From a bacterium (lineage in GTDB: Bacteria > Patescibacteriota > Minisyncoccia > Phycocordibacterales > UBA6899), in contig JAYUQG010000024.1 of NCBI GenBank assembly GCA_043756865.1, positions 91,259 through 155,258 of the forward strand: a stretch of DNA of 64,000 nt, written 5' to 3'. Both the position numbers and the translations under genes were made by a program. The notes under the pieces are model-generated. The model did no database searches. It was not told where the DNA came from and saw nothing but the letters and a program-made list of their open reading frames with translations. Below are positions 10,778-42,681 of this stretch, one piece after another. Position 1 is the first letter of the stretch; each line of letters starts with the position of its first letter.

Positions 10778-11092
10778 GAAAGCAGGCTTAGCCTAAGGGA
10801 ACTCTCGGCTACCGCCGCGGGTGATATTCAATCTCGACGACTTGATAATGGATATCCTTTCTTCAGCAGACGGGACTCTAGCATAAGAGGCGCAACACCC
10901 ATTTCCAATTTTCAGAACGAGACTCTGTCGCGAATATTTTGCTTGCCGCCGAGCGCAAAATTTCTCGACCCCAGCTCGTGGTTTCGCCTGCTGACGAAAC
11001 ATCGCTCCGCTTTTCGAGTCCCTCGTTGAGTGCGGCAGCGCACTCAACACCGCCGTGCAAAAATACCACCTTACGGTGGCTTTTTGTATTTG

Positions 11093-11166
11093 CGCGGCGG
11101 ACGGGACTCGAACCCGCAACCTCCCACGTGACAGGCGGGTGCTCTAACCAGTTGAGCTACCACCGC
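11093..11166 (-). tRNA. tRNA-Asp (GTC)
   Basis: Reverse complement folds as a cloverleaf: acceptor GCGGTGG/CCGCCGC, anticodon loop CTGTCAC, T-arm GCGGGTTCGAGTCCCGT. Close to E. coli tRNA-Asp. Confidence 0.85.
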
Positions 11167-11272: not shown

Positions 11273-11552
11273 ATATAAACATGCGTGCTCCAGTCACACC
11301 AATGAGCACAGTGGATTTATAGCATATTCTGTCTCAAAATCAAACTTGGATGTCATTTGCATGCGGTTAGGAATTAATCACCAGTCCTAAGTTCACAGAC
11401 AGGACTCGGTCACGAGTTACTAAGTCTTTTGGTGCGAAGGCCACCAAAAGCCCAAGTACTCCCGACCCCGACTCGCCCGTCTCACAAGGCTTCGACATGG
11501 CTCCGTCTTTCGATTCCTGATGAAAGTGCCATTGGGCGCTTTTTTGTAATTG

Positions 11553-11623
11553 TTGCGGGGACAGGAATCGAACCTGTGCCTGAAGGTTATGAGCCTTCCG
11601 AGCTACCGCTGCTCCACCCCGCT
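11553..11623 (-). tRNA. tRNA-Met (CAT), initiator-like
   Basis: GCGGGGTGGAGCAGCGGTAGCTC… resembles bacterial tRNA-fMet. A1:A72 mismatch, anticodon loop CTCATAA, T-loop TTCGATT. CCA not encoded. Confidence 0.8.
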
Positions 11624-30150: not shown

Positions 30151-32034
30151 ATGACACAAGACACCGCACTTACAATTATGAAAACCGGGGCAAATATTTT
30201 CCTCACTGGTGAGCCGGGGTCTGGAAAAACACATACCGTGAACGCATATGTGCGGTACCTGAAGGAGCATGGTATTCAACCTTCCATCACTGCGTCGACG
30301 GGGATTGCCGCAACACATGTCGGAGGTATGACGATTCACTCATGGAGCGGTATTGGGATACGTCGCGCACTCTCCGAATATGACCTTGATGCAATGGCCT
30401 CGAACGAGGGGCTGGTCCGCCGACTCGCGAAAGCCAAAGTGCTTATCATCGACGAAATCTCGATGCTTGATGGCACGGTGCTCGACATGGTCGACCAAGT
30501 CTCGCGCACGATAAGGATGAAACAAGAACCCTTTGGCGGGCTACAGGTGATTTTGGTGGGTGACTTCTTTCAGCTCCCGCCGATTGCAAAGCAAGGCGAA
30601 CGTGCGCAGTTTGCGTTTGATTCAAAGGCGTGGAAACTCGCCAATCCAATTATTTGCTATCTTTCTGAACAGCATCGCCAAGAAGACACGGCGTTTCTCT
30701 CGACCTTGGGTGCGATACGTCGCGGGGAATTGGAGGACAGTGTCTTTGAGTATATTGGTGAGCGTAACGTGGCACCGGGTGAACACCCACTCGATATTCC
30801 CCAACTGTACACACACAATATCGACGTCGACAAAAAGAACACCATAGAACTAGAAAAGCTCACCAGCGCACCTGTGGTCTTTCTGATGGAAACAAAGGGG
30901 AGTACGGGGCGGGTAGAACAGTTGGTAAAAGGATGCCTCTCGCCAGAGGAATTGGTCTTGAAGGAAGGTGCGTCTGTCATGTTTACCAAGAACAGCTTTG
31001 ATTCAGGTTATGTAAATGGCACACTCGGTACGGTCATCGGGTTTGATGCTGACAACGGATTTCCTATCGTGGAAACACGTGATGGCGATGAGATAACGGC
31101 GTTTCCGTCGGAGTGGGCAGTGGACGATAGTGGCAAGGTCCTCGCGACCATCACGCAAGTGCCACTACGACTCGCATGGGCTATCACGGTGCACAAAAGC
31201 CAAGGACTCTCGCTGGACGCGGCGGTCATGGACCTCTCACGTGCGTTTGAGTACGGTCAGGGGTATGTCGCACTCTCACGTGTTCGTGAATTCGCTGGTC
31301 TGCATATTCTTGGTATCAACCAGCGCGCGTTTGAGGTACATCCACTCGTCCTTGAACGCGATCAAGCATTCCGCGAACGCTCCGACGATGCAGAGCGTGG
31401 TTTTGAAGACATGCCACCGTCTGATCTCCTGGCACTCCACAATAATTTTATTACTGCTATGGGGGGAACGATTCATGCCGTCGCGCTTGATGAAGCGACA
31501 AAAGCCCCGAAGATTTCTACATATGAACAAACACTCGCACTGGTCGCAGACGGAAAAACTCTTGCAGAGATTATCGCACTTCGCGGGATGACCGAGGGTA
31601 CAATTGTGAAACATCTCGAAGAGCTCGCGCTTTCGGGCAATCTTCCGCCCCTCGAGATGGCACAATTCACAGGACTCGAGCAGCGTGGGCTCGACGATAT
31701 ACGGGAAGCCATCCTCGGCGTAGAAGGAGGTTACTTAAAGCCTATTTATGAAGCGCTCGATGAAGCCTATTCTTATGAAATGATTCGACTTGTGCGCTTA
31801 GCCACAGGCGCTCTGGCAAAGCGTAAAGAAGAGAGCACAGAGCAAAAAGTCGCTCGTAAAGAACCAGCCACTGCGAAGCCAGACAATCTTGGTGCCAAAT
31901 GGTCAACGGAAGAGGAGTCACGTCTGAGAGAAATGTTTCAATCGGGAATGAAGACTGCGCACATCGCCCGCGAGCTCAAGCGTCAATCGGGAGGTATCCG
32001 TGCGCGACTCAAGAAGCTCGGGTTGCTTGAATAG
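30151..32034 (+). CDS. Pif1/RecD-like superfamily-1 ATP-dependent DNA helicase
   Basis: Walker A GEPGSGKTH. Walker B LIIDEISML. Helicase motif …VGDFFQLPPI…. Pif1-family architecture with a C-terminal helical extension. Confidence 0.85.
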   Translation: MTQDTALTIMKTGANIFLTGEPGSGKTHTVNAYVRYLKEHGIQPSITASTGIAATHVGGMTIHSWSGIGIRRALSEYDLDAMASNEGLVRRLAKAKVLIIDEISMLDGTVLDMVDQVSRTIRMKQEPFGGLQVILVGDFFQLPPIAKQGERAQFAFDSKAWKLANPIICYLSEQHRQEDTAFLSTLGAIRRGELEDSVFEYIGERNVAPGEHPLDIPQLYTHNIDVDKKNTIELEKLTSAPVVFLMETKGSTGRVEQLVKGCLSPEELVLKEGASVMFTKNSFDSGYVNGTLGTVIGFDADNGFPIVETRDGDEITAFPSEWAVDDSGKVLATITQVPLRLAWAITVHKSQGLSLDAAVMDLSRAFEYGQGYVALSRVREFAGLHILGINQRAFEVHPLVLERDQAFRERSDDAERGFEDMPPSDLLALHNNFITAMGGTIHAVALDEATKAPKISTYEQTLALVADGKTLAEIIALRGMTEGTIVKHLEELALSGNLPPLEMAQFTGLEQRGLDDIREAILGVEGGYLKPIYEALDEAYSYEMIRLVRLATGALAKRKEESTEQKVARKEPATAKPDNLGAKWSTEEESRLREMFQSGMKTAHIARELKRQSGGIRARLKKLGLLE

Positions 32035-32226: not shown

Positions 32227-32266
32227 AAAGAAAAAACCGCCTTTTAGAGGCGGTCTGGTTTTTTAA
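32227..32266. terminator. Intrinsic terminator hairpin ACCGCC-ttttaga-GGCGGT with an A-run upstream and a T-run downstream; terminates sbmA on the minus strand
   Basis: 6-bp stem. AAAGAAAAAA on plus becomes a U-tract on minus. ctggtttttt also follows on the plus strand. Confidence 0.6.
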
Positions 32267-33591
32267 GCTACTTCGTCGATTTTCTCAAGCGGGCGATCAT
32301 TGATTGCACGTTCAAGTGAACTCAAACGTTTGTAGATTGAGAGCATTTCGACAATAGTCGGCCAATTGAGGACCAAATATTGAAAAGAACTTTCTACTCT
32401 TCCGAATGCGCGCACAATCTGCTGCATGACTCCAAGGGTGAATCCTGCAAGTATCGCCTCTTTGGAAAGCAGGGTTGGTGCGAGTGCGATGTAGGGAACG
32501 AGTGCACCCGCCTGTAGATAGCTATACCGCACCATGTTGAAGTACATGTAGTGAAAGTACATCCGAAAGTAGTTTGTTCTCACGTGACCAAACAGCTCAC
32601 GCAATGTCTTCGGTTGTGCCCGAGTTTCGTCCTCTTCGCCGAATACTAGCTCCTTGCGGTAAGCGTGCTCCACTCGTTGGTTGTGGAATTTCAATGTCGG
32701 CAGATAATAACCCGTCAGTGCGAGCACAATCGTACCGAAAACAGACCAGCAGACTGCAATAATCACCAATCCATGGGCGATCGGTCCGATGACGGGTATC
32801 TCCGAGACAAACTTCGTCGAGAGCATCCAAAGAATCGGCAAGAACGCAATGAGCGTCATCACCGCATCAAGCAGTCCCGCACCCAATCCTTCCATGATGT
32901 CTGCAAAACGCATCGTGTCGTCTTGAATACGTTGGGACGCTCCTTCGATGTGACGGACTTTGCTCCATTTCCCAGTATAGTACTCGTTCATCGCGGTGCG
33001 CCACCGGAAGTTGTAGTGCTGGATGAAATAGTTTCCCAGCGTTCTCACAATCACAAACACCGCTGCAATGGTGAAAAAGGTGGCCAGACGTCCGTAGTAC
33101 TCAGTATTTTCGATAGTTCCGGGGTTCGCAAACATGGTTTGAATCATGTTGTAAAACCCACCGAACCATTCGTTAATCATGACATCGAGTTGCACCTGAA
33201 ACCACGTGAAAAAGATAATCACAGCGGAACCAAGAAGCGACCACTTCAGCCATTTGTGTGAACTACAGAAGTACCAGCAGGCAATAAATATTCCGTAGCA
33301 AGGGATGAGGAATTGGTATGCCCAAAAAGTCACCGCGCTTCCGAGCGCACTTATCTGGGATTGCACCAACTTTACTCGCTCGGGGTCTGTCTTTGCACCG
33401 AATCGCGCCGCTTCCTTTTGTAGCGTTTCGAGTAATCCGTAGTCGAGTTGAGCAAAGCCGAACCATTGACCAACGGAATACATTTGACCTGTTTGCTCTC
33501 CTAATGTGAACCAAAACACCAAGCAGGCAAGTGCCCATATCACAAATGAGCCAAAGAAGAGGAGCGGCCTCGGAAAGAAGGAATTAAACAT
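32263..33591 (-). CDS. sbmA: SbmA/BacA-family inner-membrane peptide transporter
   Basis: Strong collinear similarity to SbmA as recalled from E. coli: MFNSFFPRP…, FRWRTAMNEYY, HIEGASQRIQDDTMRFA, MTLIAFLPIL, NQRVEHAYRKELVFGEEDETRA, YFRMYFHYMYFN, LSIYKRLSSLE. Confidence 0.85.
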   Translation of the reverse strand: MFNSFFPRPLLFFGSFVIWALACLVFWFTLGEQTGQMYSVGQWFGFAQLDYGLLETLQKEAARFGAKTDPERVKLVQSQISALGSAVTFWAYQFLIPCYGIFIACWYFCSSHKWLKWSLLGSAVIIFFTWFQVQLDVMINEWFGGFYNMIQTMFANPGTIENTEYYGRLATFFTIAAVFVIVRTLGNYFIQHYNFRWRTAMNEYYTGKWSKVRHIEGASQRIQDDTMRFADIMEGLGAGLLDAVMTLIAFLPILWMLSTKFVSEIPVIGPIAHGLVIIAVCWSVFGTIVLALTGYYLPTLKFHNQRVEHAYRKELVFGEEDETRAQPKTLRELFGHVRTNYFRMYFHYMYFNMVRYSYLQAGALVPYIALAPTLLSKEAILAGFTLGVMQQIVRAFGRVESSFQYLVLNWPTIVEMLSIYKRLSSLERAINDRPLEKIDEVA

Positions 33592-33720: not shown

Positions 33721-33828
33721 AGTTATCCACACCCACCCCTTGCGTAATTCTACACAGGGTGTATATTTCATTCATCGAGACGATACGTCGTCTCAATTTA
33801 ACAAAGCCCGTCTCTGACGGGCTTTTTT
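33721..33828 (+). repeat. Repeat R1' (copy B): small-RNA-like element with terminator GCCCGTC-tctg-ACGGGC plus T6
   Basis: About 95% identical to 32042..32130. Same orientation as copy A. Confidence 0.55.
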
Positions 33829-33858
33829 ACGTCTCCACAACCGCCACAGCTTTTTCAA

Positions 33859-33888
33859 GAAAAAAACCGCCAACTGTTGATGGCGGTT
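33859..33888 (-). terminator. Intrinsic terminator for the minus-strand gene 33902..34621 (AACCGCC-aactgttgat-GGCGGTT)
   Basis: 7-bp stem. The A-run on plus becomes a U-tract on minus. Confidence 0.55.
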
Positions 33889-33901
33889 TATTGTGTTTCT
33901 G

Positions 33902-34621
33902 CTATTTACGCAGTTTGCGAATGAGCGGTTTCACGAGTATGAGGGTGATGTTGAGTGCAATCAGGCAAAGCCACAATCCAAATAGGTATTTCATGGCTGT
34001 GAAAAACCAGTCATGTTCAGTCCAGATTTCTTTGAGCGTGAACACGAAGTAGTCTGGGTCATGCCACGCGAATGCGACGATTGCTGCCACAAAAAGTGAG
34101 GTGAGGATGATTTGCCCTCGTGGTTCCTCCACAAGCCACGCGCCGATGCGCTCGAGACGATTCGTGATTTTGCTCCACCCCTCCGCCGTTCGTACGGCGA
34201 TGGGTGTCCAGAATGCACGGAGTGCTTCGTGAATTGGATCCCATGCCATATGCCAAATCTTGGTGACCCAACTTGCGGTAGCATTCCACATGCGGGCAAG
34301 TCTGTCGCCGAGTCTCAGCACGCTCACGATGGCCACTATGGTGAGGGCGACCTGACCCAAGATTGCAAAGGGAAGTCCCACAATAAGGAGCGGAATACCC
34401 CACCATGCACCTGCAGAAATTCGTTCAACAAATGCACTGCCGAGCAGTAGCGCAAAAGAGAGAATCGCCACTCCCCATGCAGGTAAGAGTGGCATTTCAT
34501 GGCGGAGCCAAAATTTGAGCCCCACAAACAGGTGGAAGTAATAAGCAATTCCTGATTTCTCGGGAACTGATTCATGCCTTGCGAGGTACGGACGCTCAAA
34601 GAAAAACCGTGCAATGTTCAT
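33902..34621 (-). CDS. Hypothetical polytopic membrane protein (239 aa)
   Basis: Five or six TM helices. Terminator downstream. Confidence 0.5.
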   Translation of the reverse strand: MNIARFFFERPYLARHESVPEKSGIAYYFHLFVGLKFWLRHEMPLLPAWGVAILSFALLLGSAFVERISAGAWWGIPLLIVGLPFAILGQVALTIVAIVSVLRLGDRLARMWNATASWVTKIWHMAWDPIHEALRAFWTPIAVRTAEGWSKITNRLERIGAWLVEEPRGQIILTSLFVAAIVAFAWHDPDYFVFTLKEIWTEHDWFFTAMKYLFGLWLCLIALNITLILVKPLIRKLRK

Positions 34622-34758
34622 GTGATGAACCCCTTTTTATCTTTCTGCAAACTACAACGATAAATGGTTATTGTAAAGAGCTTGTCGTCATGTGGTGTAT
34701 TGCACTCTCCGCCCCCACCCCGTATCATTTGCACCAGCATGTACAGCGGGAAAAGGTA

Positions 34759-35055
34759 ATGGGCAAAATGGATACATGGCGTATGACCGAAACAGGCACG
34801 GTCGGAGAATGGATACAGGCACCCAATGGTGAATTTGTGGGGACTATTGTCTCCGACTGTGGCGATGTGTACATCGCAGGAAGCAAGGACTGCCCTGATC
34901 CCTACGATGGCGCGCTCATTACCAAAGGCACGCGCGTGCGCTTCGTCCCCGAGCAAAAGGGGAACAAGGTGAAAGACATGGACACGGGTGTTCCGTACTC
35001 TTGGGGCGTCGCTCGAGAAATCGCGATTGTTCCTAAAACACTCAAGCACCGTTAG
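34759..35055 (+). CDS. Small hypothetical protein (~98 aa)
   Basis: AAAAGG SD-like sequence upstream. The start could be at 34768. The minus-strand ORF overlap was rejected. Confidence 0.35.
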   Translation: MGKMDTWRMTETGTVGEWIQAPNGEFVGTIVSDCGDVYIAGSKDCPDPYDGALITKGTRVRFVPEQKGNKVKDMDTGVPYSWGVAREIAIVPKTLKHR

Positions 35056-35396
35056 CGGTGCTTTTTCTTTGCACCGCTAATTTCCGCGGACTCACGCACC
35101 CAGGCGTCGATTTGCTCGCGGTCAGTCATGATTTCTTCGGGGACTTCCCAGTAGCTCATGGCTACCTTCTTTTGGTCTTTGCTTGAATATGCAAACGGGG
35201 CGCTGCCTAGCGTTTCATAGTGAGCACGGTTTGTCTCGTTCACCTTGAAATAAAGCGTGCTTTCGGCAATGATTCCAAAAATTATCCCGTCTAAGTACAG
35301 CCCATAGCCGCCAAACATGGATTTGGAGGTAATGCCACGAATGCGCCCTAAGACATCATGCACCACATAGTCGTGGAACTCACTCGATTTTTTCAT
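35052..35396 (-). CDS. TfoX/Sxy N-terminal-domain protein (competence regulator family)
   Basis: KSMFGGYGLYLDGIIFGII…LYFKV matches the TfoX_N core. Confidence 0.75.
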   Translation of the reverse strand: MKKSSEFHDYVVHDVLGRIRGITSKSMFGGYGLYLDGIIFGIIAESTLYFKVNETNRAHYETLGSAPFAYSSKDQKKVAMSYWEVPEEIMTDREQIDAWVRESAEISGAKKKHR

Positions 35397-35848
35397 GGAC
35401 GTGGTTTGTGCAATGCTTCTTGCTCAGTCTTAAAACGAAACCATACTTTTCTCCAGTACTGGTAAGTGAGAAAAATAAAGACTCCTGCTAAGGCCGACCA
35501 TGCTCCAAGCAGAAAAAAGTAGGCACACCAGAAAAGTTCTTTGATATAAAAATATTTGATGAGTTTTGGGTAGCAACTCACCTCCGCCTGTGTGGCGTCG
35601 GGGTACTTTCTGCGCTGCGCTTCTTCTAGACTGTTTGCCACTGATGCGTGCATCCAAGAAAAGAATACCGCACAGACACCGAGATATTCGATCCAACCCT
35701 TGTTTGAAATATACGCAGTAGTAAGCAATACGAAAGCCACAATAATGGATTCAACTTGCCACGTATGCATGCCCGTCAGCTTCTGTATGCGCACCATACC
35801 GAGGCAAAAGAGGTTTTTCATAGTGCAAATTGTAACATGGACAGACAT
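35393..35848 (-). CDS. Hypothetical membrane protein (4 TM)
   Basis: 4-nt overlap with the downstream tfoX-like gene, so likely co-transcribed. Confidence 0.45.
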   Translation of the reverse strand: MSVHVTICTMKNLFCLGMVRIQKLTGMHTWQVESIIVAFVLLTTAYISNKGWIEYLGVCAVFFSWMHASVANSLEEAQRRKYPDATQAEVSCYPKLIKYFYIKELFWCAYFFLLGAWSALAGVFIFLTYQYWRKVWFRFKTEQEALHKPRP

Positions 35849-35919
35849 GGGGGTAATACCTTGAAAAATAGACGCATTTGGCTATACTGCGTAGGTTAGT
35901 TGGATTGATATAACATATT

Positions 35920-35988
35920 GCGGGTTCGTCTAATGGTAGGACGTTACCCTCTGGAGGTAAATATTGGGGTTCGAGTCCCTGACCCGCA
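35920..35988 (+). tRNA. tRNA-Gln (CTG)
   Basis: Acceptor GCGGGTT/GACCCGC, Glu/Gln-type D-arm TCTAATGGTAGGA, anticodon stem TTACC/GGTAA with loop CTCTGGA, T-arm TGGGGTTCGAGTCCCTG. 69 nt. Confidence 0.7.
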
Positions 35989-35997
35989 GTTACCACA

Positions 35998-36028
35998 CAA
36001 AAACACTCTGCCAAGAGTGTTTTTGTTT
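35998..36028 (+). terminator. Hairpin AAAAACACTCT-gcca-AGAGTGTTTTT immediately 3' of tRNA-Gln; centre of a longer palindrome
   Basis: Perfect 11-bp stem. Flanked by tRNA 3' end at 35971..35995 and its inverted copy at 36030..36055. Confidence 0.5.
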
Positions 36029-36029
36029 T

Positions 36030-36055
36030 GTGGTAACTCGCGGGTCAGGGACTCG
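36030..36055 (-). repeat. Inverted copy of the tRNA-Gln 3' end (GTGGTAACTCGCGGGTCAGGGACTCG)
   Basis: Reverse complement equals CGAGTCCCTGACCCGCgAGTTACCAC, compared with the tRNA end CGAGTCCCTGACCCGCAGTTACCAC. Confidence 0.6.
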
Positions 36056-36168
36056 AAATGCGTAAGGTGGTATACAAGACGAGCGAAGCGAGTGCTTGTC
36101 ACCGAGCCGGGGTCGAGAGCACTTTGTAGTTCGGTGGCCTTGCGCCGAAATACTTAGTGACTCGTGAC

Positions 36169-36186
36169 CGAGTCCCTGACCCGCAG
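36169..36186 (+). repeat. Direct copy of the tRNA-Gln 3' end (CGAGTCCCTGACCCGCAG); att-like
   Basis: 18/18 identical to tRNA positions 35972..35989. Confidence 0.65.
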
Positions 36187-36452
36187 CAATGTCGCAACGT
36201 CACCCTTTTTGGGTGATTTTGCTATGGGTGAAAATTGTTTGTGAGGGTGATGTTTTTCTCCCCCCGCTCAATTATGCCAATATATGTGCGGTGCACCTCG
36301 GCGCGCTCTGTGAGTTTTTCTTGGGAAAGCTCGCGTTTCAAGCGTTCCTCGCGGACTCGTTTGCCGAATTTGGTTAGCAACTGTTTATTCATATCTACAT
36401 GTACAGTGTAGGAAGTTGCCTACCATGGTTCTACATACTAAAGTTAGCAAAT

Positions 36453-37043
36453 ATGGACAATAATGCGGTGATATTTATACTAGTTGTTTTTGTTGTTTTT
36501 ATTGTGATGAAGATGTTTTTTCAAAAAAAGACACACACAAACACTCATTCAAAAAGCGGACTAATCCTTTCAATCATCTCGCTTTTGTTACCATTCGCGA
36601 AGGAGTTTTTAGAAAAGAGACAGGAGGAAAAGAAGTATATTACAGAAGACGCTCGATATAGTAAAAAACAATATTTCATGACGACCGCTGAGCATCATGT
36701 TTTCGACCAGTTGTTAAAAATAGCAGGGGAGAAATATCACGTCTTTCCGCAGGTGCACTACAGTAAAATTATGTACGCCGAGGGACAGCAGAATTTCCAT
36801 AATCCGTGGTTCAACAAGATAGACCGAAAGTCCGCAGACTTTGTACTTTTTGACAAGCACGACATTTCTCCTGTTTTGGTGATTGAGCATGACGATAAGA
36901 CTCATAATCGTAAAGACCGAATTGAAAGGGACGATTTTATTGACCACACACTTGAAAAAAGTGGAATTTCAATTGTGCATGTTCGACCATTCGCGACCGA
37001 AGAGGAACTGAAGAAACTACTCCAAGTAAAAATCAGTATATAA
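36453..37043 (+). CDS. Membrane-anchored DUF2726-like protein (predicted PD-(D/E)xK / NERD-like nuclease fold)
   Basis: N-terminal TM (AVIFILVVFVVFIVM). Core …YHVFPQVHYSKI…ADFVLFDKHDISPVLVIEHDDKTHNRKDR…GISIVHV has the D…E-x-D/K pattern typical of DUF2726. Confidence 0.6.
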   Translation: MDNNAVIFILVVFVVFIVMKMFFQKKTHTNTHSKSGLILSIISLLLPFAKEFLEKRQEEKKYITEDARYSKKQYFMTTAEHHVFDQLLKIAGEKYHVFPQVHYSKIMYAEGQQNFHNPWFNKIDRKSADFVLFDKHDISPVLVIEHDDKTHNRKDRIERDDFIDHTLEKSGISIVHVRPFATEEELKKLLQVKISI

Positions 37044-37150
37044 GCTTGGATTGGCTTAAAATTGTTCCAACGTCGTCCCACACTCCCAGCAAATGGAAGC
37101 ACCCCTTGGGGGTGTTTTCATTTGCGGGAAAAAGTGCTCTGCAGCACTTT

Positions 37151-37167
37151 TGGCAGGGACTCGAAGC
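37151..37167 (-). repeat. Inverted partial copy of the tRNA-Gln 3' end (GGCAGGGACTCGAAGCC)
   Basis: Reverse complement equals GGCTTCGAGTCCCTGCC. Confidence 0.5.
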
Positions 37168-37316
37168 CGTTCTCCCCTATTTGTGAAGGATTCTTATCCT
37201 GAGTAAATGGAAAACGGGTACTGCCCCTGTAAGGGGAGAGTCTCTGACTCGGAAGACTGAGGCGAAACACTTGGCACATAAGCACTCCTGTGCGAATATG
37301 TTTAGTAACTAATGAC

Positions 37317-37331
37317 CAGTCCCTGACCCGC
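37317..37331 (+). repeat. Direct copy of the tRNA-Gln 3' end (CAGTCCCTGACCCGC); att-like
   Basis: 14/15 identical to the tRNA 3' end. Confidence 0.6.
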
Positions 37332-37364
37332 TACTAAATTGAGTGAGGTTCGGTTCGCGAGAGT

Positions 37365-37790
37365 ATGATTATGACGCCAGAAAATTTAATAAACATAATA
37401 AGTATCGGAGGGGCACTACTAGGTGTTGTTGTTGGAGCACTCCTTAATCACTTTCTAGAAAAAGATAGAAATAAAGACTCTTTAATCTTAAATAAGAAAA
37501 TTGATATTTACTCCTCCCTGTTAGTTAAATTAAATACAGTATTTCAAGACAGTGAGAAAAATATTCTTAATGACCCACTCTTTGAAACAACAATCAGAAC
37601 AACCCTTGCACAATCATTGTCAGAAGCTCGCCTAATAGCTGATGCAAAATTAGAACAGAAACTCAGGGACTACTATGATGAAGCAGTGCTTTTTTGGGAG
37701 AATAAAAAGTACGACAACACCATGCCTAATTTAGTTATTGAGATTGAGCAGTTGATGCGAATTGAGCTAGGAAAAGAACGTCTGCATTAA
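37365..37790 (+). CDS. Hypothetical protein with an N-terminal TM helix and an alpha-helical domain
   Basis: IISIGGALLGVVVGALL TM. AT-rich codon usage typical of the islet. Confidence 0.45.
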   Translation: MIMTPENLINIISIGGALLGVVVGALLNHFLEKDRNKDSLILNKKIDIYSSLLVKLNTVFQDSEKNILNDPLFETTIRTTLAQSLSEARLIADAKLEQKLRDYYDEAVLFWENKKYDNTMPNLVIEIEQLMRIELGKERLH

Positions 37791-37894
37791 TCATTTTGCT
37801 GAGCGCCGAAATGACTTCTTTCAAATCGCCTTATATATCATTATTGGCTTAATGGGGGAAAGTAGGACGCAGGGGGCTGCGGTAAAACCACGAA

Positions 37895-38614
37895 GTGAAA
37901 AGAAGTATCGATCCAATGAAAAACGAAAAAATTAACTCAAAAATCATCGCTCTGTGGAACAAGTATTTTCAGAATGACACTGAGGTGTACGCACCGATGT
38001 TCTACGATGACTTCAAGCGGGGCGGGTTATTGTTTGTCGGCATGAACCCGTCATTTAGCGAGCGAGGATTCAAGACGATCTTGAAAGGCACAAAGTATGA
38101 GAAGATTGACCCCACTTCGTTTTTCAGGTGGAGTAATATTTCCTCAAACCCTGATCTTATCAGCGACTGTATTGCGGTCGAGACCCATGCGTACGAGAAT
38201 TACAAACCCTTCTTTGCTCGTCCTGTTGCGATCGCAAAAGAAGTCGGGCTTGATTGGCAACACATTGATCTATTTCTTTATAAAGAAACATCGCAGGCAG
38301 ATTTCAAGAAACGCATTAAGGATGGTGACTTGCTGAATCAATTTGCACTCGAGCAAATCGCGCTCTTTGAGGAGGTGCTCCTTGCGATTGAGCCGAAGTG
38401 CATCATCGTTGCGAACGCATTCGGCTCCGAGCTTCTCCGTGAACACATCAAGAATGACCTCTTGTGGGATAAAGAGCGGGGATTTCACTGGTTCACCAAA
38501 GGAGGACGAAAGATTCCCATGCTCTTTTCCTCCATGCTTAGTGGGCAAAGAGCACTTGATCGGTGGTCGTATGAACGCTTGAAATGGCACGTTGGGCAGG
38601 CGGTAAAATCATGA
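37895..38614 (+). CDS. Hypothetical protein; possible uracil-DNA-glycosylase-superfamily fold (GMNPS motif). Speculative.
   Basis: LLFVGMNPSF resembles UDG-family motif A (GQDPY/GINPG/GMNPG). The C-terminal …FSSMLSG… is only a weak motif-B candidate. Confidence 0.4.
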   Translation: MKRSIDPMKNEKINSKIIALWNKYFQNDTEVYAPMFYDDFKRGGLLFVGMNPSFSERGFKTILKGTKYEKIDPTSFFRWSNISSNPDLISDCIAVETHAYENYKPFFARPVAIAKEVGLDWQHIDLFLYKETSQADFKKRIKDGDLLNQFALEQIALFEEVLLAIEPKCIIVANAFGSELLREHIKNDLLWDKERGFHWFTKGGRKIPMLFSSMLSGQRALDRWSYERLKWHVGQAVKS

Positions 38615-39321
38615 AAATTATGACAGGAATATTTTTTTCACATCCACATACACTTTCAGATCAAGTAGGTAAAATCTTGGAAAGAGTTGGTCCTCAGAAA
38701 TTCTTTTCAAGTTCTGACAAAGAAGTGAAGAAAGCACAAGAAGGATTCGCGGCATATTTCTTCACTCTTACTTTAAAGAAATACACAGGAAGAGACTGGT
38801 GGTTAGCTCAATACGATCAAGCGGCTCGGTCTTATCCAGATTTTAATTTTATATCATTCGCCGAAAATCCTGGCGATATAAAGATGGAACCAGTAGAACT
38901 AACTGGTATTTATCCTCATTTCAAAACTTTTGATGAGGCCTTAAGAGTTGTTGAAAATAAAAAGAAGAAATATGGATCTGAGCCAGTGAATTTTAGTCTG
39001 CTGGTATTTGTTAATCACGAAAAAAGCGAAGAGTGGATTAATCTGCTAAGGGAGAAAGTGAGTAGCGAGCATCCATTCCTAAGTATTTGGACTATACACT
39101 TGAGATTCAAGAAGGGTGGAAAGGAAGTTGGTAAGTCGGTCGCCCAAAGCATACCCCCCTTGCCATGGCTGAGGATTGAAGCAGATACTGATGATTCAGA
39201 AGTGCACAAGCGCCAGCCGCTCCCATCCTATATGGAAGAGCATCATGAAGGAAGGAATACTTACGTCACATTCAAACCCGAGTTTCTTGATAAGATCAGG
39301 TCGTTGCAAAAAAGTGCCTAG
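38611..39321 (+). CDS. Hypothetical protein (236 aa)
   Basis: ATGA start/stop overlap with the upstream gene. No recognisable motif. Confidence 0.5.
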   Translation: MKIMTGIFFSHPHTLSDQVGKILERVGPQKFFSSSDKEVKKAQEGFAAYFFTLTLKKYTGRDWWLAQYDQAARSYPDFNFISFAENPGDIKMEPVELTGIYPHFKTFDEALRVVENKKKKYGSEPVNFSLLVFVNHEKSEEWINLLREKVSSEHPFLSIWTIHLRFKKGGKEVGKSVAQSIPPLPWLRIEADTDDSEVHKRQPLPSYMEEHHEGRNTYVTFKPEFLDKIRSLQKSA

Positions 39322-39806
39322 TTTGTTGGTGCTGTAAGAATATCCCCGAATGGCTTCACTGTACGGTATTTGTTGTAAATGAGGCAGAGACAGAGACGGG
39401 TGTTTTGTGTCTTATCTGTAGCATTCACAAAATGACCCCAGTGACCGAGACGCCTAGTTACAAGAGTAGAAGGGGTGGTAAGATATCCGTATAAGGTCTT
39501 GCCCTACATGTTTGAGACCGAGATAGTCAGCTATCAACAATAGGTTCGGCTGACCGAGTGCTATCAGAACTGGAAATTTAAAGATTCACTCAATTCCATC
39601 CCGACATACCGGCTGAGTGCCGTATCTAGAAACTCAAAGTCGCTCAATGGGCGACTTTGAGTTTGAGTTGTAGAATAGGTCTGTAATCTATAGGATATAC
39701 AAATGTCAGTCAAACTCATTCTGAAGAGATAGTCCGCTTCTTGAAAACCACAGAGCCGGAAGCCATTTGTATTAGGGGTGAATAGGGTGTCAGATTTGCA
39801 ACTTTC

Positions 39807-39830
39807 GGTTCGAATCCCTGAAGCATTACC
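39807..39830 (+). repeat. Degenerate copy of tRNA-Gln T-arm and 3' flank (GGTTCGAATCCCTGAAGCATTACC); probable distal att remnant
   Basis: Compare tRNA GGTTCGAGTCCCTGACCCGCAGTTACC. Not an intact tRNA. Confidence 0.45.
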
Positions 39831-39933
39831 TCCACGGAATTGCACTGTACTTTCACCTTTTTTTATATTGCCTTGCGTTTTGTGCAGATATTGATAGTTT
39901 GAGCAGTATTATTTATCAACGCACGGCTTCTTT

Positions 39934-42681
39934 ATGCGTAAACTCGTCACCGTCTTATTCCTCGCCCTCACGCTTTTAGCTATCTCTCTGCCCACTGCGT
40001 TTGCAGCCTTCCCTGTTTTTCCTCCGACACTCAATAAAAGTCCCGACGCTGGGTATGCGGATGATTCAGTGAGCAGTGGAGTGGTGCCGAACATTGGTAC
40101 AACGAGTGCTACAGTCTTCACCTTTAAGGTGCTGTATGCACAGTCACAGAATCGTGAGCCATGGGACATTAATCTTGTTGTCACTGATGGAACAACCACT
40201 GCAATTCATGCGATGAATCATGATGTGGGTGCGAATGATCCAATATTACGCGATGGGAATTATGCGAATGGGGAACAGTACATCTTCGCTGCAACGCTCA
40301 CTCCAGGCATGTGGCAATACCACTTTGAAAGCGATTTCGGCGCACAACTTCCGGGAGCGGGGGAGTGGGATTTCACAGTGAGTGTCGATACGACTCCTTC
40401 GAAGTGTGGGGTGGATTGTTACTCAAATGTGCTTTTCCTGCCTGGACTTGAGGCGAGCAGATTATTTTGGACAGATCCAAATTGCATTTTCCTCAATTGC
40501 GAAAACCAACTATGGCTTGCCAATAGTGATACAGATGCAAAACAACTCTACCTTAATTCAAACGGCACAAGCATATTGAATGACATTTATACGAGTGTTG
40601 AACGAGGTGCGATCGACGAGGCGGCGATTCCTGTGGCGGGCACAAATATATATAAAACTTTTCTCAATAGTCTCAGTGAATGGAAGAATGAAGAGCATCT
40701 TATTGCCGACTACGCAGTAGCACCGTATGACTGGAGATTGTCAGTTGATGATGTGCTCACGAAGGGAATAAAAAACGGAGACAATATTTATTATGGTGGC
40801 GCGAGCGGGACATATATTCTTGATGAACTTTTACGCATGGCGTCCACGTCGAAAACGCAAAAAGTTACAATTGTTGCGCACTCAAATGGTGGATTAGTTG
40901 CAAAACAGTTAATGCTGAAGCTCCGCGAGCTAGGCAAGGAGGACTTGATTGACAGGCTCATTCTCGTCGCTGTTCCACAGGTTGGAACACCAAAGGCAGT
41001 CGGTGGACTACTTCACGGAACAGATCTTGGTCTCCCGTTCATTCTTGATGAGGAGCACGCTCGAACTCTTGGCGAGAATATGCCGAGTGCCTATGCATTG
41101 ATGCCATCTCAGAAATATTTCGAGACCATCAATCCGAATTCAATTACAAACAAACTCATTTCATTTACCGACTCACCGCTGTATGCGCCAGAGAGATCAC
41201 AGTACGGATTTTTGGTGAGCAACATGACGGAGCTTCGGGGCTATCTACTCGGCAGTGAAGGACGAACAGAGCCTGCCGATTCTGATCTCGATTCACCAAA
41301 TGTGCTGAAGTTCGAACTTCTCGATCAAGCATCATCAACCCATGCGCTACTCGATGAATGGCAACCTGCGAGTACGACCGAAGTGGTGCAAATTGGGGGA
41401 TGGGGAGAGAAAACCATATCCGGAGTCAGCTATTACACGGAACAACAACGTGATTGTGTGACTGTGCAGGGTCAGTTTGGCGCTAGTCACCAAGAGTGCG
41501 GTCCGTATTATGAGGTGAAAAAATACAAACCCAATTTTACGACAGAGGGCGATGGTACGGTGGTTGTTCCGAGTGCGCTTTGGATAGCGACAAGCACTTC
41601 GCAGGTTGAGAGGTATTGGGTGGATTTGAAAAAATACAATGATGAGAACATCGATAAAGACCACGCGAAAATACTGGAAGTGAGCACTCTCCTCGACTTC
41701 ATTAAGACCAAACTCACTAATGTGACGTCCTCACTCCCGAACTACATAGTAAACTCCGCATCGACGCTGAGCGACGCTCCAGACATAAAGTTTGTCTATA
41801 CACTCCACTCGCCGCTTTCGCTCAATCTCTACGACACTTTAGGAAATCATACGGGAATATCTACCACAACAGGTTACGTGGAGCAAAATATCTCAGGGTC
41901 TCGCTACGGCACATTCGGCGAAGTGAAGTATATTATTGCAAATGCCGATGTCGCTCAACATCTTGCGCTTCAGGGGTATGCGACAGGAACGTTCAGTTTG
42001 GATGTTGAAAAAGTACGTGGAGATATAATTCTCGCGAGCACCACCTTTGCTTCGGTGCCCGTATCTCCAAACACCATTGCGACATTCTCGCTTCCTGCAA
42101 ATGGTGACTTCTCATCTTCGACACCATTACGGGTTGACGTTGATGGAAATGGGGCAAATGATATCGTGCTCGTACCAGAGATTGGAGCAACTGTATATCC
42201 AGACTTCACTCCACCCGAAGCGATATTCTCATTTAATGCAATTACTAAAGATGTTGTGATTTTGGGGGAAGATAACGTTGGGACAACCTCAACACTAATC
42301 ACACCAACGTCGACCACCATCACTGACCAGTCGGGAAATACACTCAGCATCCCATTCATCAAGTTCAAAGAGAAGCCAACTAAATTAAAAATTGCATTCG
42401 ATACGTTAATTTATAACGGAGTAGCGACCGCAACACCATGGGTGACTATTGAGTATGAATGGGTGATTAAGAATAACGGCATGCTCCAGTCACTTTCACA
42501 GGATATTCGCATCAAGGGTGCGCGCCGTGTGACTGCAGACTATTCTTTGAGCAAGGGTGAAACCAAGATTATGGACAGAATCAGGGAGGATGGGGAAAAG
42601 AGTGTCACAAAAACTGTAAAAACGGGTGTAACCGTGCTTCCGCTGTCGACAAAAGCAGGAGCACTCGACGTGACGTATTGA
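39934..42681 (+). CDS. Large secreted alpha/beta-hydrolase (lipase/esterase, PGAP1/LCAT-like) with a long C-terminal beta-rich extension
   Basis: Signal peptide MRKLVTVLFLALTLLAISLPTAFA. Nucleophile elbow VTIVAHSNGGLVA (GxSxG). 915 aa. Confidence 0.7.
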   Translation: MRKLVTVLFLALTLLAISLPTAFAAFPVFPPTLNKSPDAGYADDSVSSGVVPNIGTTSATVFTFKVLYAQSQNREPWDINLVVTDGTTTAIHAMNHDVGANDPILRDGNYANGEQYIFAATLTPGMWQYHFESDFGAQLPGAGEWDFTVSVDTTPSKCGVDCYSNVLFLPGLEASRLFWTDPNCIFLNCENQLWLANSDTDAKQLYLNSNGTSILNDIYTSVERGAIDEAAIPVAGTNIYKTFLNSLSEWKNEEHLIADYAVAPYDWRLSVDDVLTKGIKNGDNIYYGGASGTYILDELLRMASTSKTQKVTIVAHSNGGLVAKQLMLKLRELGKEDLIDRLILVAVPQVGTPKAVGGLLHGTDLGLPFILDEEHARTLGENMPSAYALMPSQKYFETINPNSITNKLISFTDSPLYAPERSQYGFLVSNMTELRGYLLGSEGRTEPADSDLDSPNVLKFELLDQASSTHALLDEWQPASTTEVVQIGGWGEKTISGVSYYTEQQRDCVTVQGQFGASHQECGPYYEVKKYKPNFTTEGDGTVVVPSALWIATSTSQVERYWVDLKKYNDENIDKDHAKILEVSTLLDFIKTKLTNVTSSLPNYIVNSASTLSDAPDIKFVYTLHSPLSLNLYDTLGNHTGISTTTGYVEQNISGSRYGTFGEVKYIIANADVAQHLALQGYATGTFSLDVEKVRGDIILASTTFASVPVSPNTIATFSLPANGDFSSSTPLRVDVDGNGANDIVLVPEIGATVYPDFTPPEAIFSFNAITKDVVILGEDNVGTTSTLITPTSTTITDQSGNTLSIPFIKFKEKPTKLKIAFDTLIYNGVATATPWVTIEYEWVIKNNGMLQSLSQDIRIKGARRVTADYSLSKGETKIMDRIREDGEKSVTKTVKTGVTVLPLSTKAGALDVTY

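Follow-up and report, generated by a model that had tools for sequence, protein, structure and literature searches.

Integron cassettes have circular intermediates, and in the attachment site attP of CTX-type phages, integrative mobile elements exploiting Xer (IMEX) that depend on the host XerCD recombinases, two inverted copies of the target fold into a hairpin that mimics the double-stranded target; integron attC sites and the folded CTX attP serve as analogies below. The tycheposons of Prochlorococcus carry adaptive or defensive cargo, and a minority of them use large serine recombinases. Two antiphage glycosylases of the uracil-DNA glycosylase (UDG) family, Brig1 and Brig2, have been published, and some of these glycosylases are carried on integron cassettes. 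Here we describe a transfer RNA (tRNA) locus in 64,000 nucleotides (nt) of the Patescibacteria contig JAYUQG010000024.1 (the window, in whose coordinates positions are given), where direct and inverted copies of the 3' end of a tRNA-Gln gene enclose a small set of putative defence genes. The repeats are part of a large, conserved, covarying, tRNA-anchored family of structured elements that is absent from the catalogues searched, and this conclusion is firm whatever mechanism produced them. The features at tRNA-Gln that carry it, with the related units elsewhere in the window, are these:

35919-35989, plus strand: tRNA-Gln(CTG) gene, called by ARAGORN and scoring 56.6 bits with the Rfam tRNA model; CCA not encoded
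35970-36057, plus strand: 88-nt near-perfect palindrome from an inverted-repeat search; RNA fold of -83.9 kcal/mol, z = -11.2
36034-36190, plus strand: type-A unit U1; covariance model 107 bits, E 3.8e-28
36199-36217, plus strand: intrinsic-terminator-like hairpin directly 3' of the direct copy D2, from a terminator scan
37100-37114 and 37130-37151, plus strand: two terminator-like hairpins 3' of the DUF2726 gene, from a terminator scan and reading of the sequence
11387-11532, minus strand: second type-A unit, downstream of tRNA-Met (11552-11623, minus strand); 108 bits, E 1.6e-28
10905-11036, minus strand: third, divergent type-A unit, downstream of tRNA-Asp (11092-11166, minus strand); 47.5 bits, E 1.7e-11

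The last 18 nt of tRNA-Gln, CGAGTCCCTGACCCGCAG, are the repeated segment by pattern search and correspond to tRNA positions 56-73 (D1, 35972-35989). This segment recurs exactly at 36169-36186 (D2) and with three mismatches at 37316-37333 (D3). An inverted copy (I1) at 36038-36055 has two mismatches and agrees at 16 of 16 positions across 36040-36055; the second inverted copy (I2) is real but short, 15 nt at 37154-37168 that match tRNA positions 35967-35981 with 93% identity. An earlier note, made from the letters of this DNA, had pointed to these direct and inverted copies, and they are genuine: four matches to the 18-mer compare with 0.06 expected, and none of 100 shuffles gave four. A further, degenerate copy that it listed (D', 39806-39830, plus strand, GGTTCGAATCCCTGAAGCATTACC) is of marginal significance, with a local alignment score of 26 where 300 shuffles averaged 17 and reached 25 at most, and its match is mostly the universal T-loop GGTTCGAATCC. 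Judged by sequence, AGTCAGCTA at 39525-39533 is a better candidate for the oldest displaced tRNA-Gln end. Identity to the tRNA drops with distance from it, from 100% and 100% to 83% and then to a collapsed remnant. The 88-nt palindrome is built from the T-loop and 3' end of the tRNA, the flank, an intrinsic terminator (stem-loop 35997-36026) and I1.

The enclosed DNA is AT-rich, as had been noticed, with a GC content of 0.35-0.40 in 36200-37000, 37200-37800 and 38600-39200, where the flanks have 0.45-0.55. The repeats are not an assembly artefact, since window 33801-39912 is matched at 100% identity by a Logan contig that was assembled independently (SRR23617209_272397, 6112 nt). The contigs of two samples of the same organism, L002 (SRR23617208_852020) and L001, break at different points, one inside tRNA-Gln (35941) and the other at 39912; these may be branch points of the assembly graph.

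Both stretches that run from an inverted to a direct copy at tRNA-Gln share TTAGTrACTnnTGACC just 5' of the direct copy, which first suggested that an element had been copied and that these are not bare att scars. Unit U1 consists of I1 (36040-36055), a three-way-junction core and D2, and in its fold (-81.6 kcal/mol, z = -7.9) the stretch 36038-36186 makes a closed stem around a multi-helix core. By blastn its right half is 82% identical over 74 nt to window 11402-11475, just 3' of the opposite-strand tRNA-Met gene, and an unrelated metagenome-assembled genome of Patescibacteria (locus L017) has a stretch that matches it with 76% identity. The 19-mer CTTAGTRACTCGTGACCGA from this half matches at least 120 metagenome contigs. 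Loci on other contigs are numbered with the prefix L; the family loci, about 120, are the 19-mer matches listed, a lower bound since further copies may lie beyond the listing. A pattern specific to the window, GGGTCAGGGACTCG-N98-128-CGAGTCCCTGACCC, had zero metagenome matches; the closing stem is locus-specific and the core alone is common to the copies.

The copies share one layout. Read from 5' to 3', a variable strand comes first, then AAAG and a short helix whose hairpin varies; next are CGAGnCGG and the long conserved helix (GGTCGAGAGTACTTAG…CTTAGTAACTCGTGACC), whose tip also varies, and at the 3' end stand a variable strand that is the complement of the first one and a tRNA-like acceptor strand. 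Near-invariant junction sequences occur in parts of the core that were not used for picking the set, and the junction left of the direct copy is a conserved GTGAC. RNAalifold on a MAFFT-based alignment of 26 copies gave 31 pairs, 16 of them with compensatory double changes. A covariance model found 100 copies in 100 sources, and three copies in the window, and in its alignment 29 of the 31 pairs show compensatory changes on both sides; 93.9% of the cells pair, against 77.2% when shuffled and 34-41% when partners are slid, figures somewhat inflated by fitting the alignment to the model, with which the slid controls and the MAFFT-based count nevertheless agree. The covariation is strong and is compatible with folded single-stranded DNA and RNA alike. 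One G.U pair is invariant in the conserved helix, and the strand that folds is therefore the tRNA-sense strand. In the window, type-A units adjoin three of the six tRNA genes (tRNA-Gln, tRNA-Met and tRNA-Asp), and the tRNA-Asp unit has lost the middle part of its long helix P3, the two strands together. The direct and inverted tRNA copies are therefore the tail and closing stem of this element.

Searches for an existing description gave no match. With Rfam 15, only tRNAs reached the gathering score over the window, and nothing relevant was found at E<=10 over 35800-40000; full-text searches of a literature of about 8 million papers found no description of the element. Rfam matches to MIR1515 and mir-2772 were dismissed as generic hairpins. 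A hammerhead or kink-turn junction was rejected, the core motifs being unfit by eye and no Rfam ribozyme model matching. The inverted copy resembles a retroviral primer-binding site, but it has no TGG to pair with CCA, and that reading was also set aside.

The units are linked to tRNA genes. Upstream sequence reaches 330 nt or more for 96 copies; in 65 of these a same-strand tRNA ends within 260 nt upstream, and 16 tRNA types are represented. The unit lies about 40 nt 3' of the tRNA, with a median of 162 nt from tRNA end to 19-mer, and is on the tRNA strand wherever an upstream tRNA is visible. Its direct copy spans C56 of the T-loop to the discriminator, and by our own count all 18-19 nt are identical in about 25 of 67 loci. 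In many loci, as in the window, the tRNA end, a terminator and the inverted copy together make a hairpin with arms of 35-45 base pairs (bp). Tandem and composite units are present at other loci.

At positions where the two direct copies of a locus are not the same, the inverted strand is complementary to D1 alone in 76 cases and to D2 alone in 16. At L103 and L017, D2 still encodes CCA and is followed by a native flank that is conserved from one organism to another; the functional tRNA copy at L103 is without CCA and has the unit's terminator next to it, and the L017 locus is without a tRNA. In most family members, from reading the listed flanks, D2 also has a terminator of its own on its 3' side. 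Because the inverted strand tracks D1, and because CCA, native flank and a separate terminator are found at D2, the data fit a reading in which D2 is the displaced original tRNA end and D1, spacer, I and core are the inserted DNA.

Where genes accompany the units, they always lie in the spacer between D and the next I, both in the window and on at least five other contigs. Examples of the latter are:

L147: tRNA-Gly, with 1.4 kb of cargo from the tRNA to the matching unit
L159, 4276-10000: tRNA-Gly(TCC), with 5.5 kb of cargo from the tRNA to the matching unit
L104: tRNA-His, with 1.1 kb of cargo from the tRNA to the matching unit
L060: tRNA-His, with 1.8 kb of cargo from the tRNA to the matching unit
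L075 (JACCDH011157894.1), 3200 nt: a 127-nt terminal direct repeat that is a complete type-A unit, with a DUF3800 protein and six small open reading frames (ORFs)

The last of these is either a 3.07-kb circle or a unit-cassette-unit arrangement. At L159 a large serine recombinase (Resolvase, Recombinase and Zn_ribbon_recom domains) adjoins the tRNA and overlaps its end, the only relative with a site-specific integrase at the element end. Its other genes encode a Fic/DOC protein, a small protein that is GIY-YIG-like by eye, a 267-amino-acid (aa) protein without an assigned family, and a 68-aa XRE protein that is, on our reading of both sequences, about 60% identical to the 56-aa XRE protein of the window. 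The latter stops at …NITLTN, and the second module at tRNA-Gln thus looks like a deletion derivative of an L159-type element. No protein family was consistently linked to the units when 899 ORFs around 120 of them were clustered; the neighbours, judged by eye, are housekeeping genes (LepA, Hsp20, TruB, CCA-adding enzyme and IF-2).

One explanation of these observations is that the units end cassette-like modules that stack on tRNA genes. A complete module would run from D (a copy of tRNA positions 56-73) through a spacer that holds a terminator hairpin or cargo, to I (an inverted copy of the T-loop, T-stem and acceptor strand) and the three-way-junction core, after which the next D begins. Modules would enter the tRNA gene between T55 and C56, within its T-loop; the D of the incoming module would complete the tRNA, and the earlier 3' end would be shifted downstream and decay there. 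The recombination site would be the folded single strand of I, core and D, its stem re-creating the double-stranded T-arm region, and the recombinase would be encoded outside the window and act in trans. The family, its fold, its tie to tRNA genes, the limits of D, the place of the cargo and the order of decay are observed; we infer the T-loop insertion, the folded strand as substrate and the acting enzyme. Three modules would then be stacked at tRNA-Gln, the newest closest to the tRNA: an empty module 1 (35972-36168, 197 bp), module 2 with the truncated XRE and DUF2726 genes (36169-37315), and module 3 with the genes for a 141-aa, a UDG-fold and a 236-aa protein and a conserved end block of its own (37316 to about 39524). 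If the empty module formed a circle, its junction would read …CTCGTGAC|CGAGTCCCTGACCCGCAG|TTACC; the corresponding junction of the DUF2726 module would read …AATGAC|CGAGTCCCTGACCCGCAG|CAATG, and the expected excision alleles would join the tRNA directly to CAATGTCGC, CTACTAAATTG or TCAACAATAGGTTCGG. The cargo genes would most likely have defence functions. We favour this reading of integron-like stacking at the T-loop, with the folded I-core-D strand as site and a recombinase in trans, and give it a little less than an even chance. Serial insertion at one tRNA, which the earlier note had suggested, survives in modified form, upheld by the decay with distance, the cargo in the D-to-I spacer and the serine recombinase and XRE homologue of L159.

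Several observations weigh against such modules. Large serine recombinases normally use short att sites and not a 110-nt folded core, and recombinases are not near most copies, serine recombinases being found in two and Xer-like ones in two of about 120 loci. Most copies are without cargo. Neither a circular junction nor an empty site was observed; the empty tRNA-Gln site was not found because the 151-aa protein beside tRNA-Gln has only ten homologues among 5.8 billion proteins (the nearest at 64% identity), at loci that have neither the tRNA nor synteny. The element is also absent from viral contigs of IMG/VR, where the 19-mer had no match and the 16-mer GGGGTCGMGAGYACTT had 19, none confirmed by the covariance model. 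At L093, L131 and L121 the nearer D is the more diverged or comes from another isoacceptor; the rule that the newest copy lies nearest is therefore not universal, and units appear also to swap between loci. Finally, the inverted strand could track the tRNA end through passive correction of the palindrome, and not through ownership by a module.

The points about cargo, recombinases and viral contigs would fit with the units being structured non-coding RNA genes, or cis-acting parts linked to tRNA expression, in which case the cargo would merely have landed in a recombination-prone repeat. Such an RNA would imitate the acceptor/T-arm 'minihelix' of the tRNA next to it, the conserved three-way junction replacing the T-loop, and would perhaps be processed by tRNA enzymes or alternate in pairing between the tRNA 3' half and its own tail, for which the ability of the inverted strand to pair with either D1 or D2 would serve. 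Helices that are independent of the tRNA copy (P2 and the tip of P3) covary strongly, an invariant G.U pair forms on the tRNA-sense strand only, the unit shares the strand of the tRNA wherever one is seen upstream, and D is followed by a terminator of its own; the majority of copies carry neither cargo nor recombinase, and none was found in viral contigs. Yet a strong intrinsic terminator stands between tRNA and unit with no space for a promoter, and pairing with D1 would unfold the tRNA. It is D2, the supposed 3' strand of the closing stem, that decays, whereas the 5' strand keeps in step with the tRNA; copies are often truncated or composite, and no Rfam family matched even at E<=10. We regard an RNA of this kind, the main rival, as possible and on balance unlikely.

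Two further accounts seem improbable to us. Tyrosine integrases specific for the tRNA could have left genomic islets whose attL and attR scars accumulated, partly inverted, before the integrase was lost. Direct repeats of the 3' part of the tRNA do flank inserted DNA here as in tRNA-integrating islands, they run from the T-loop to the tRNA end, as expected of an identity block in T-loop-type tRNA integration, and the cargo is AT-rich; tycheposons, too, show stacked elements at one tRNA with scattered partial tRNAs. Integrase insertion, however, does not yield inverted copies, the I-core-D unit stands behind 16 kinds of tRNA and mostly without cargo, and the conserved core shows the covariation of a folded strand. 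To the left of D the junction reads GTGAC, which is conserved and is no symmetric arm of the T-stem kind, and searches of the 64 kb with Pfam (31 ORFs) and with phmmer probes, an E. coli XerD sequence among them, revealed no integrase, as had been noted. The classical footprint of a tyrosine integrase, proposed at the outset, is not borne out: no integrase was found, the junction has no symmetric core site and most members have no cargo. Nor is it probable that replication switched templates at the tRNA terminator hairpin (a fold-back inverted triplication with TTCGAA of the T-loop as microhomology), the core being a selfish, functionless passenger copied between tRNA loci. The giant near-perfect palindromes do centre on the terminator loop, the D2 of L043, L059, L057 and L108 is followed by the same flank as the tRNA, and units have apparently been swapped between isoacceptors (L131, L093), all as template switching would have it; but a functionless passenger would not keep compensatory changes in three helices over about 100 diverged copies, nor near-invariant junction sequences outside the selection seed.

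Further blocks between tRNA-Gln and the probable right border of the inserted DNA, with the flank beyond it, are:

37152-37254, plus strand: type-B unit, made of I2 (37152-37168), a hairpin, the motif GTACTGCCCCTGTAAGG and a degraded direct copy AGAGTCTCTGAC (37237-37254)
37255-37333, plus strand: truncated type-A core, …TTAGTAACTAATGACC, ending in D3 (37316-37333; 15/18 plus a 1-nt deletion); aligned with U1 and found as a pattern match with two mismatches
39376-39533, plus strand: type-C non-coding block that closes the UDG cassette; ends in …GAGATAGTCAGCTA, relatives in …GACAGTCAGCCA; no ORF of at least 40 aa
39540-39549, plus strand: ATAGGTTCGG, a native-flank match, equal to the flank after the tRNA-Gln end (…CAGCCA) in L004, L026 and L015

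In the type-B core the motif GTACTGnnnCyGTAAG sits in a small hairpin between inverted and direct T-loop copies, and both architecture and motif recur in L055, L051, L111, L133 and L134. The second unit at tRNA-Gln (37152-37333) is such a core fused to a truncated type-A core; the type-A model gives the type-B unit 7.8 bits, which is no match, and the same composite recurs in L055.

The type-C block, about 160 nt long, has 80-90% DNA identity to copies at eight distinct UDG-like loci (12 locus identifiers, some of them duplicates), in genomes whose UDG-like proteins share 64-90%. Copies lie at L010 4722-4864, L015 10267-10422, L026 749-904, L011 10271-10425, L017 10074-10234, L016 10074-10198, L018 9072-9170 and L012 9155-9218. 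The block always closes the UDG-like cluster, whichever partner gene intervenes, and is absent 3' of the 236-aa gene in loci without a UDG-like gene (L181-L184); we take it as the end-site of this type of cassette. It holds three GACCGAGAC-like motifs, and only one of 26 pairs covaries, there being too little variation to judge structure. Its end, …GAC|AGTCAGCCA in relatives and …AGTCAGCTA in the window, reads as a collapsed tRNA-Gln 3' end. The flank ATAGGTTCGG after it is common to L004, L026, L015 and the window, and the right border of the inserted DNA is probably at about 39524, with 39540-39549 as native flank. At L026 a complete, partly N-masked tRNA-Gln follows the block (905-1000), and the block's last bases, …CAGCCAGTTT, duplicate the tRNA end and the start of the flank; the island is thus upstream of a tRNA-Gln copy. 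The 400-nt gene-free stretch from the type-C block to the next gene contains a weak Rfam group I intron match (39598-39753, 17.3 bits, E 0.4) and a 17-bp hairpin (39630-39664). Group I introns are present in Patescibacteria tRNA genes (PMC13011429). A transfer-messenger RNA or intron-containing tRNA was rejected for 39322-39933, where a tRNA 5' half was not found.

The genes between the repeats are:

36222-36392, minus strand: truncated XRE/controller-type helix-turn-helix gene, 56 aa; Pfam HTH_3 positions 1-40 of 55
36453-37043, plus strand: membrane-anchored DUF2726 protein, 196 aa, from the gene call on the Logan contig; the ORF opens at 36399
37365-37790, plus strand: 141-aa ORF with an N-terminal hydrophobic segment, from the gene call on the Logan contig
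37916-38614, plus strand: UDG-superfamily-fold protein, 232 aa, with the invariant motifs FVGMNPSF and FFSSMLSGQRALD
38611-39321, plus strand: 236-aa protein, its gene overlapping the end of the UDG-like gene by 4 nt; weak PD-(D/E)xK-nuclease-like fold

The XRE protein matches positions 7-53 of 77 of the PADLOC 'control protein' profile of restriction-modification systems and is without the C-terminal 12-20 or so residues, the 68-aa L159 homologue running beyond …NITLTN. The DUF2726 gene that had been predicted is real (Pfam PF10881, 84 bits, E 9e-24, cut-off 24.7), and DUF2726 is a member of the PD-(D/E)xK clan. The 141-aa protein had no match in Pfam, PADLOC, NCBIfam or PHROGs; in all, two ORFs of the locus were without a family match.

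The UDG-like protein that had been predicted also holds. Its AlphaFold2 model (pLDDT 90.3) has the UDG alpha/beta fold, and the top 50 Foldseek matches in the PDB are all TDG, UdgX, family-4 UDG or SMUG1, with a best E of 5e-4 and modest template-modelling scores of 0.4-0.48. It has 358 homologues, mostly in Patescibacteria and 50-90% identical, in which G-x-N-P-S (FVGMNPSF) and FFSSMLSGQ are invariant; by their likeness to UDG families, and not by structural superposition, these may correspond to the catalytic UDG motifs A (such as GQDPY, GINPG or GMNPG) and B (HPSP or NPSGLS type). Neighbours of the gene in relatives include type III restriction-modification (L006-L009, L011) and a helicase (L010), and the downstream partner gene varies. 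A same-strand tRNA-Gln lies upstream in L004 (55 nt), L014 (1.5 kb), L012 (7.5 kb) and the window. The 236-aa protein has a conserved family of its own with 144 members, found without the UDG-like gene at L182 (5826-8693) and L183 after genes for an EcoRI-type methylase and a GmrSD_N+HNH (type IV restriction-like) protein, a setting that supports a defence-island association.

Against PADLOC-DB 2.0 the XRE protein alone matched, and the four other cargo proteins did not. The simplest reading of the cargo is a set of defence genes, in part of kinds already known, and the UDG-fold gene with its variable partner and 160-nt block is a candidate for a further defence module. The suggestion of an undescribed anti-phage module is plausible and unproven, UDG-fold glycosylases being already known from Brig1 and Brig2.

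Around the locus, 30151-32034 encodes a PIF1-like helicase with an HTH_40 domain, 32263-33591 an SbmA/BacA-type transporter, and 39934-42681 a 915-aa protein that has a signal-like segment at its N terminus and contains an LCAT-like lipase domain. Look-ups by exact sequence gave no record for the 915-aa protein or for P0121, and for the DUF2726 and 141-aa island proteins only the same contig.

If the units are recombination sites, they show how ultra-small, streamlined genomes of the Candidate Phyla Radiation (CPR) gain and shuffle defence genes, with the tRNA T-loop, the most conserved sequence in biology, as landing pad; CPR genomes are regarded as poor in classical mobile elements. We put forward only with doubt the wider proposal of a distinct gene-capture system of Patescibacteria on tRNA genes, with a programmable T-arm/acceptor stem, insertion of the folded strand into the T-loop, a rebuilt tRNA and integron-like stacking, without a dedicated neighbouring integrase, with mostly empty cassettes and defence genes as the usual cargo. 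If the units are RNAs, they are an abundant and highly conserved tRNA-linked class missing from Rfam 15, each imitating the acceptor end of the tRNA beside it. In annotation, it would be wrong to call partial tRNA repeats of Patescibacteria integrase scars automatically, and the covariance model or the 19-mer seed CTTAGTRACTCGTGACCGA can find both the units and the cassettes lodged at them.

Set beside integrons, the locus shares an array of cassettes that are short, AT-rich and mostly of a single function, with an imperfect palindrome of about 60-150 nt at the end of each, a site that would fold as a single strand and keeps its structure through covariation, the newest cassette, on our reading, nearest the anchor, and UDG-fold and other glycosylase defence genes as cargo. 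It differs in its anchor, a tRNA T-loop; IntI and attI were not found here, no IntI-type tyrosine recombinase being present in the window (Pfam on 31 ORFs; phmmer with the XerD probe), and most units are empty. Whereas attC sites have conserved R boxes and a variable centre, the units have tRNA-variable ends (…TCG / CGA…) and a conserved centre, and RYYYAAC/GTTRRRY boxes are not present. As in the CTX attP, two inverted target copies lie about 100 nt apart, and exchange of one strand would give target-left, element and target-right; unlike it, the target is the T-loop and not dif, there are no filamentous-phage genes, and the core is a conserved three-way junction. What defines tycheposons is a site-specific integrase that faces inward, together with replication genes, none of which occur here, and they have neither a conserved folded core nor an inverted tRNA copy. 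The UDG-superfamily protein resembles Brig1 and Brig2 in its divergent fold and its context, on mobile or cassette DNA near restriction-type genes, and differs in its motifs (GMNPS / SSMLSGQ), its variable partner gene and the conserved 160-nt block.

The suggestion of MITE-like (miniature inverted-repeat transposable element) palindromes built from the tRNA end comes closest for the I-D pairs, which are parts of a multi-copy structured element and not of a MITE itself. The units do resemble MITEs and the REP/BIME (repetitive extragenic palindromic and bacterial interspersed mosaic) elements in being short (about 150 nt), non-coding, multi-copy, hairpin-forming and at times tandem or composite. 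They are not MITEs because their termini vary with the neighbouring tRNA and their interior is conserved, the reverse of a MITE: family-wide terminal inverted repeats are not kept, the termini being copied from the local tRNA, and the interior covaries. Site and strand are strict (the 3' side of a tRNA), no transposase family is linked to them, and the duplicated segment is 18-19 nt and not a short target-site duplication. The conservative conclusion is that the cargo belongs to known kinds and that the element family is new to the catalogues searched. The element mixes features of attC, folded attP, tRNA islands and MITEs, and has the defining features of none of them.

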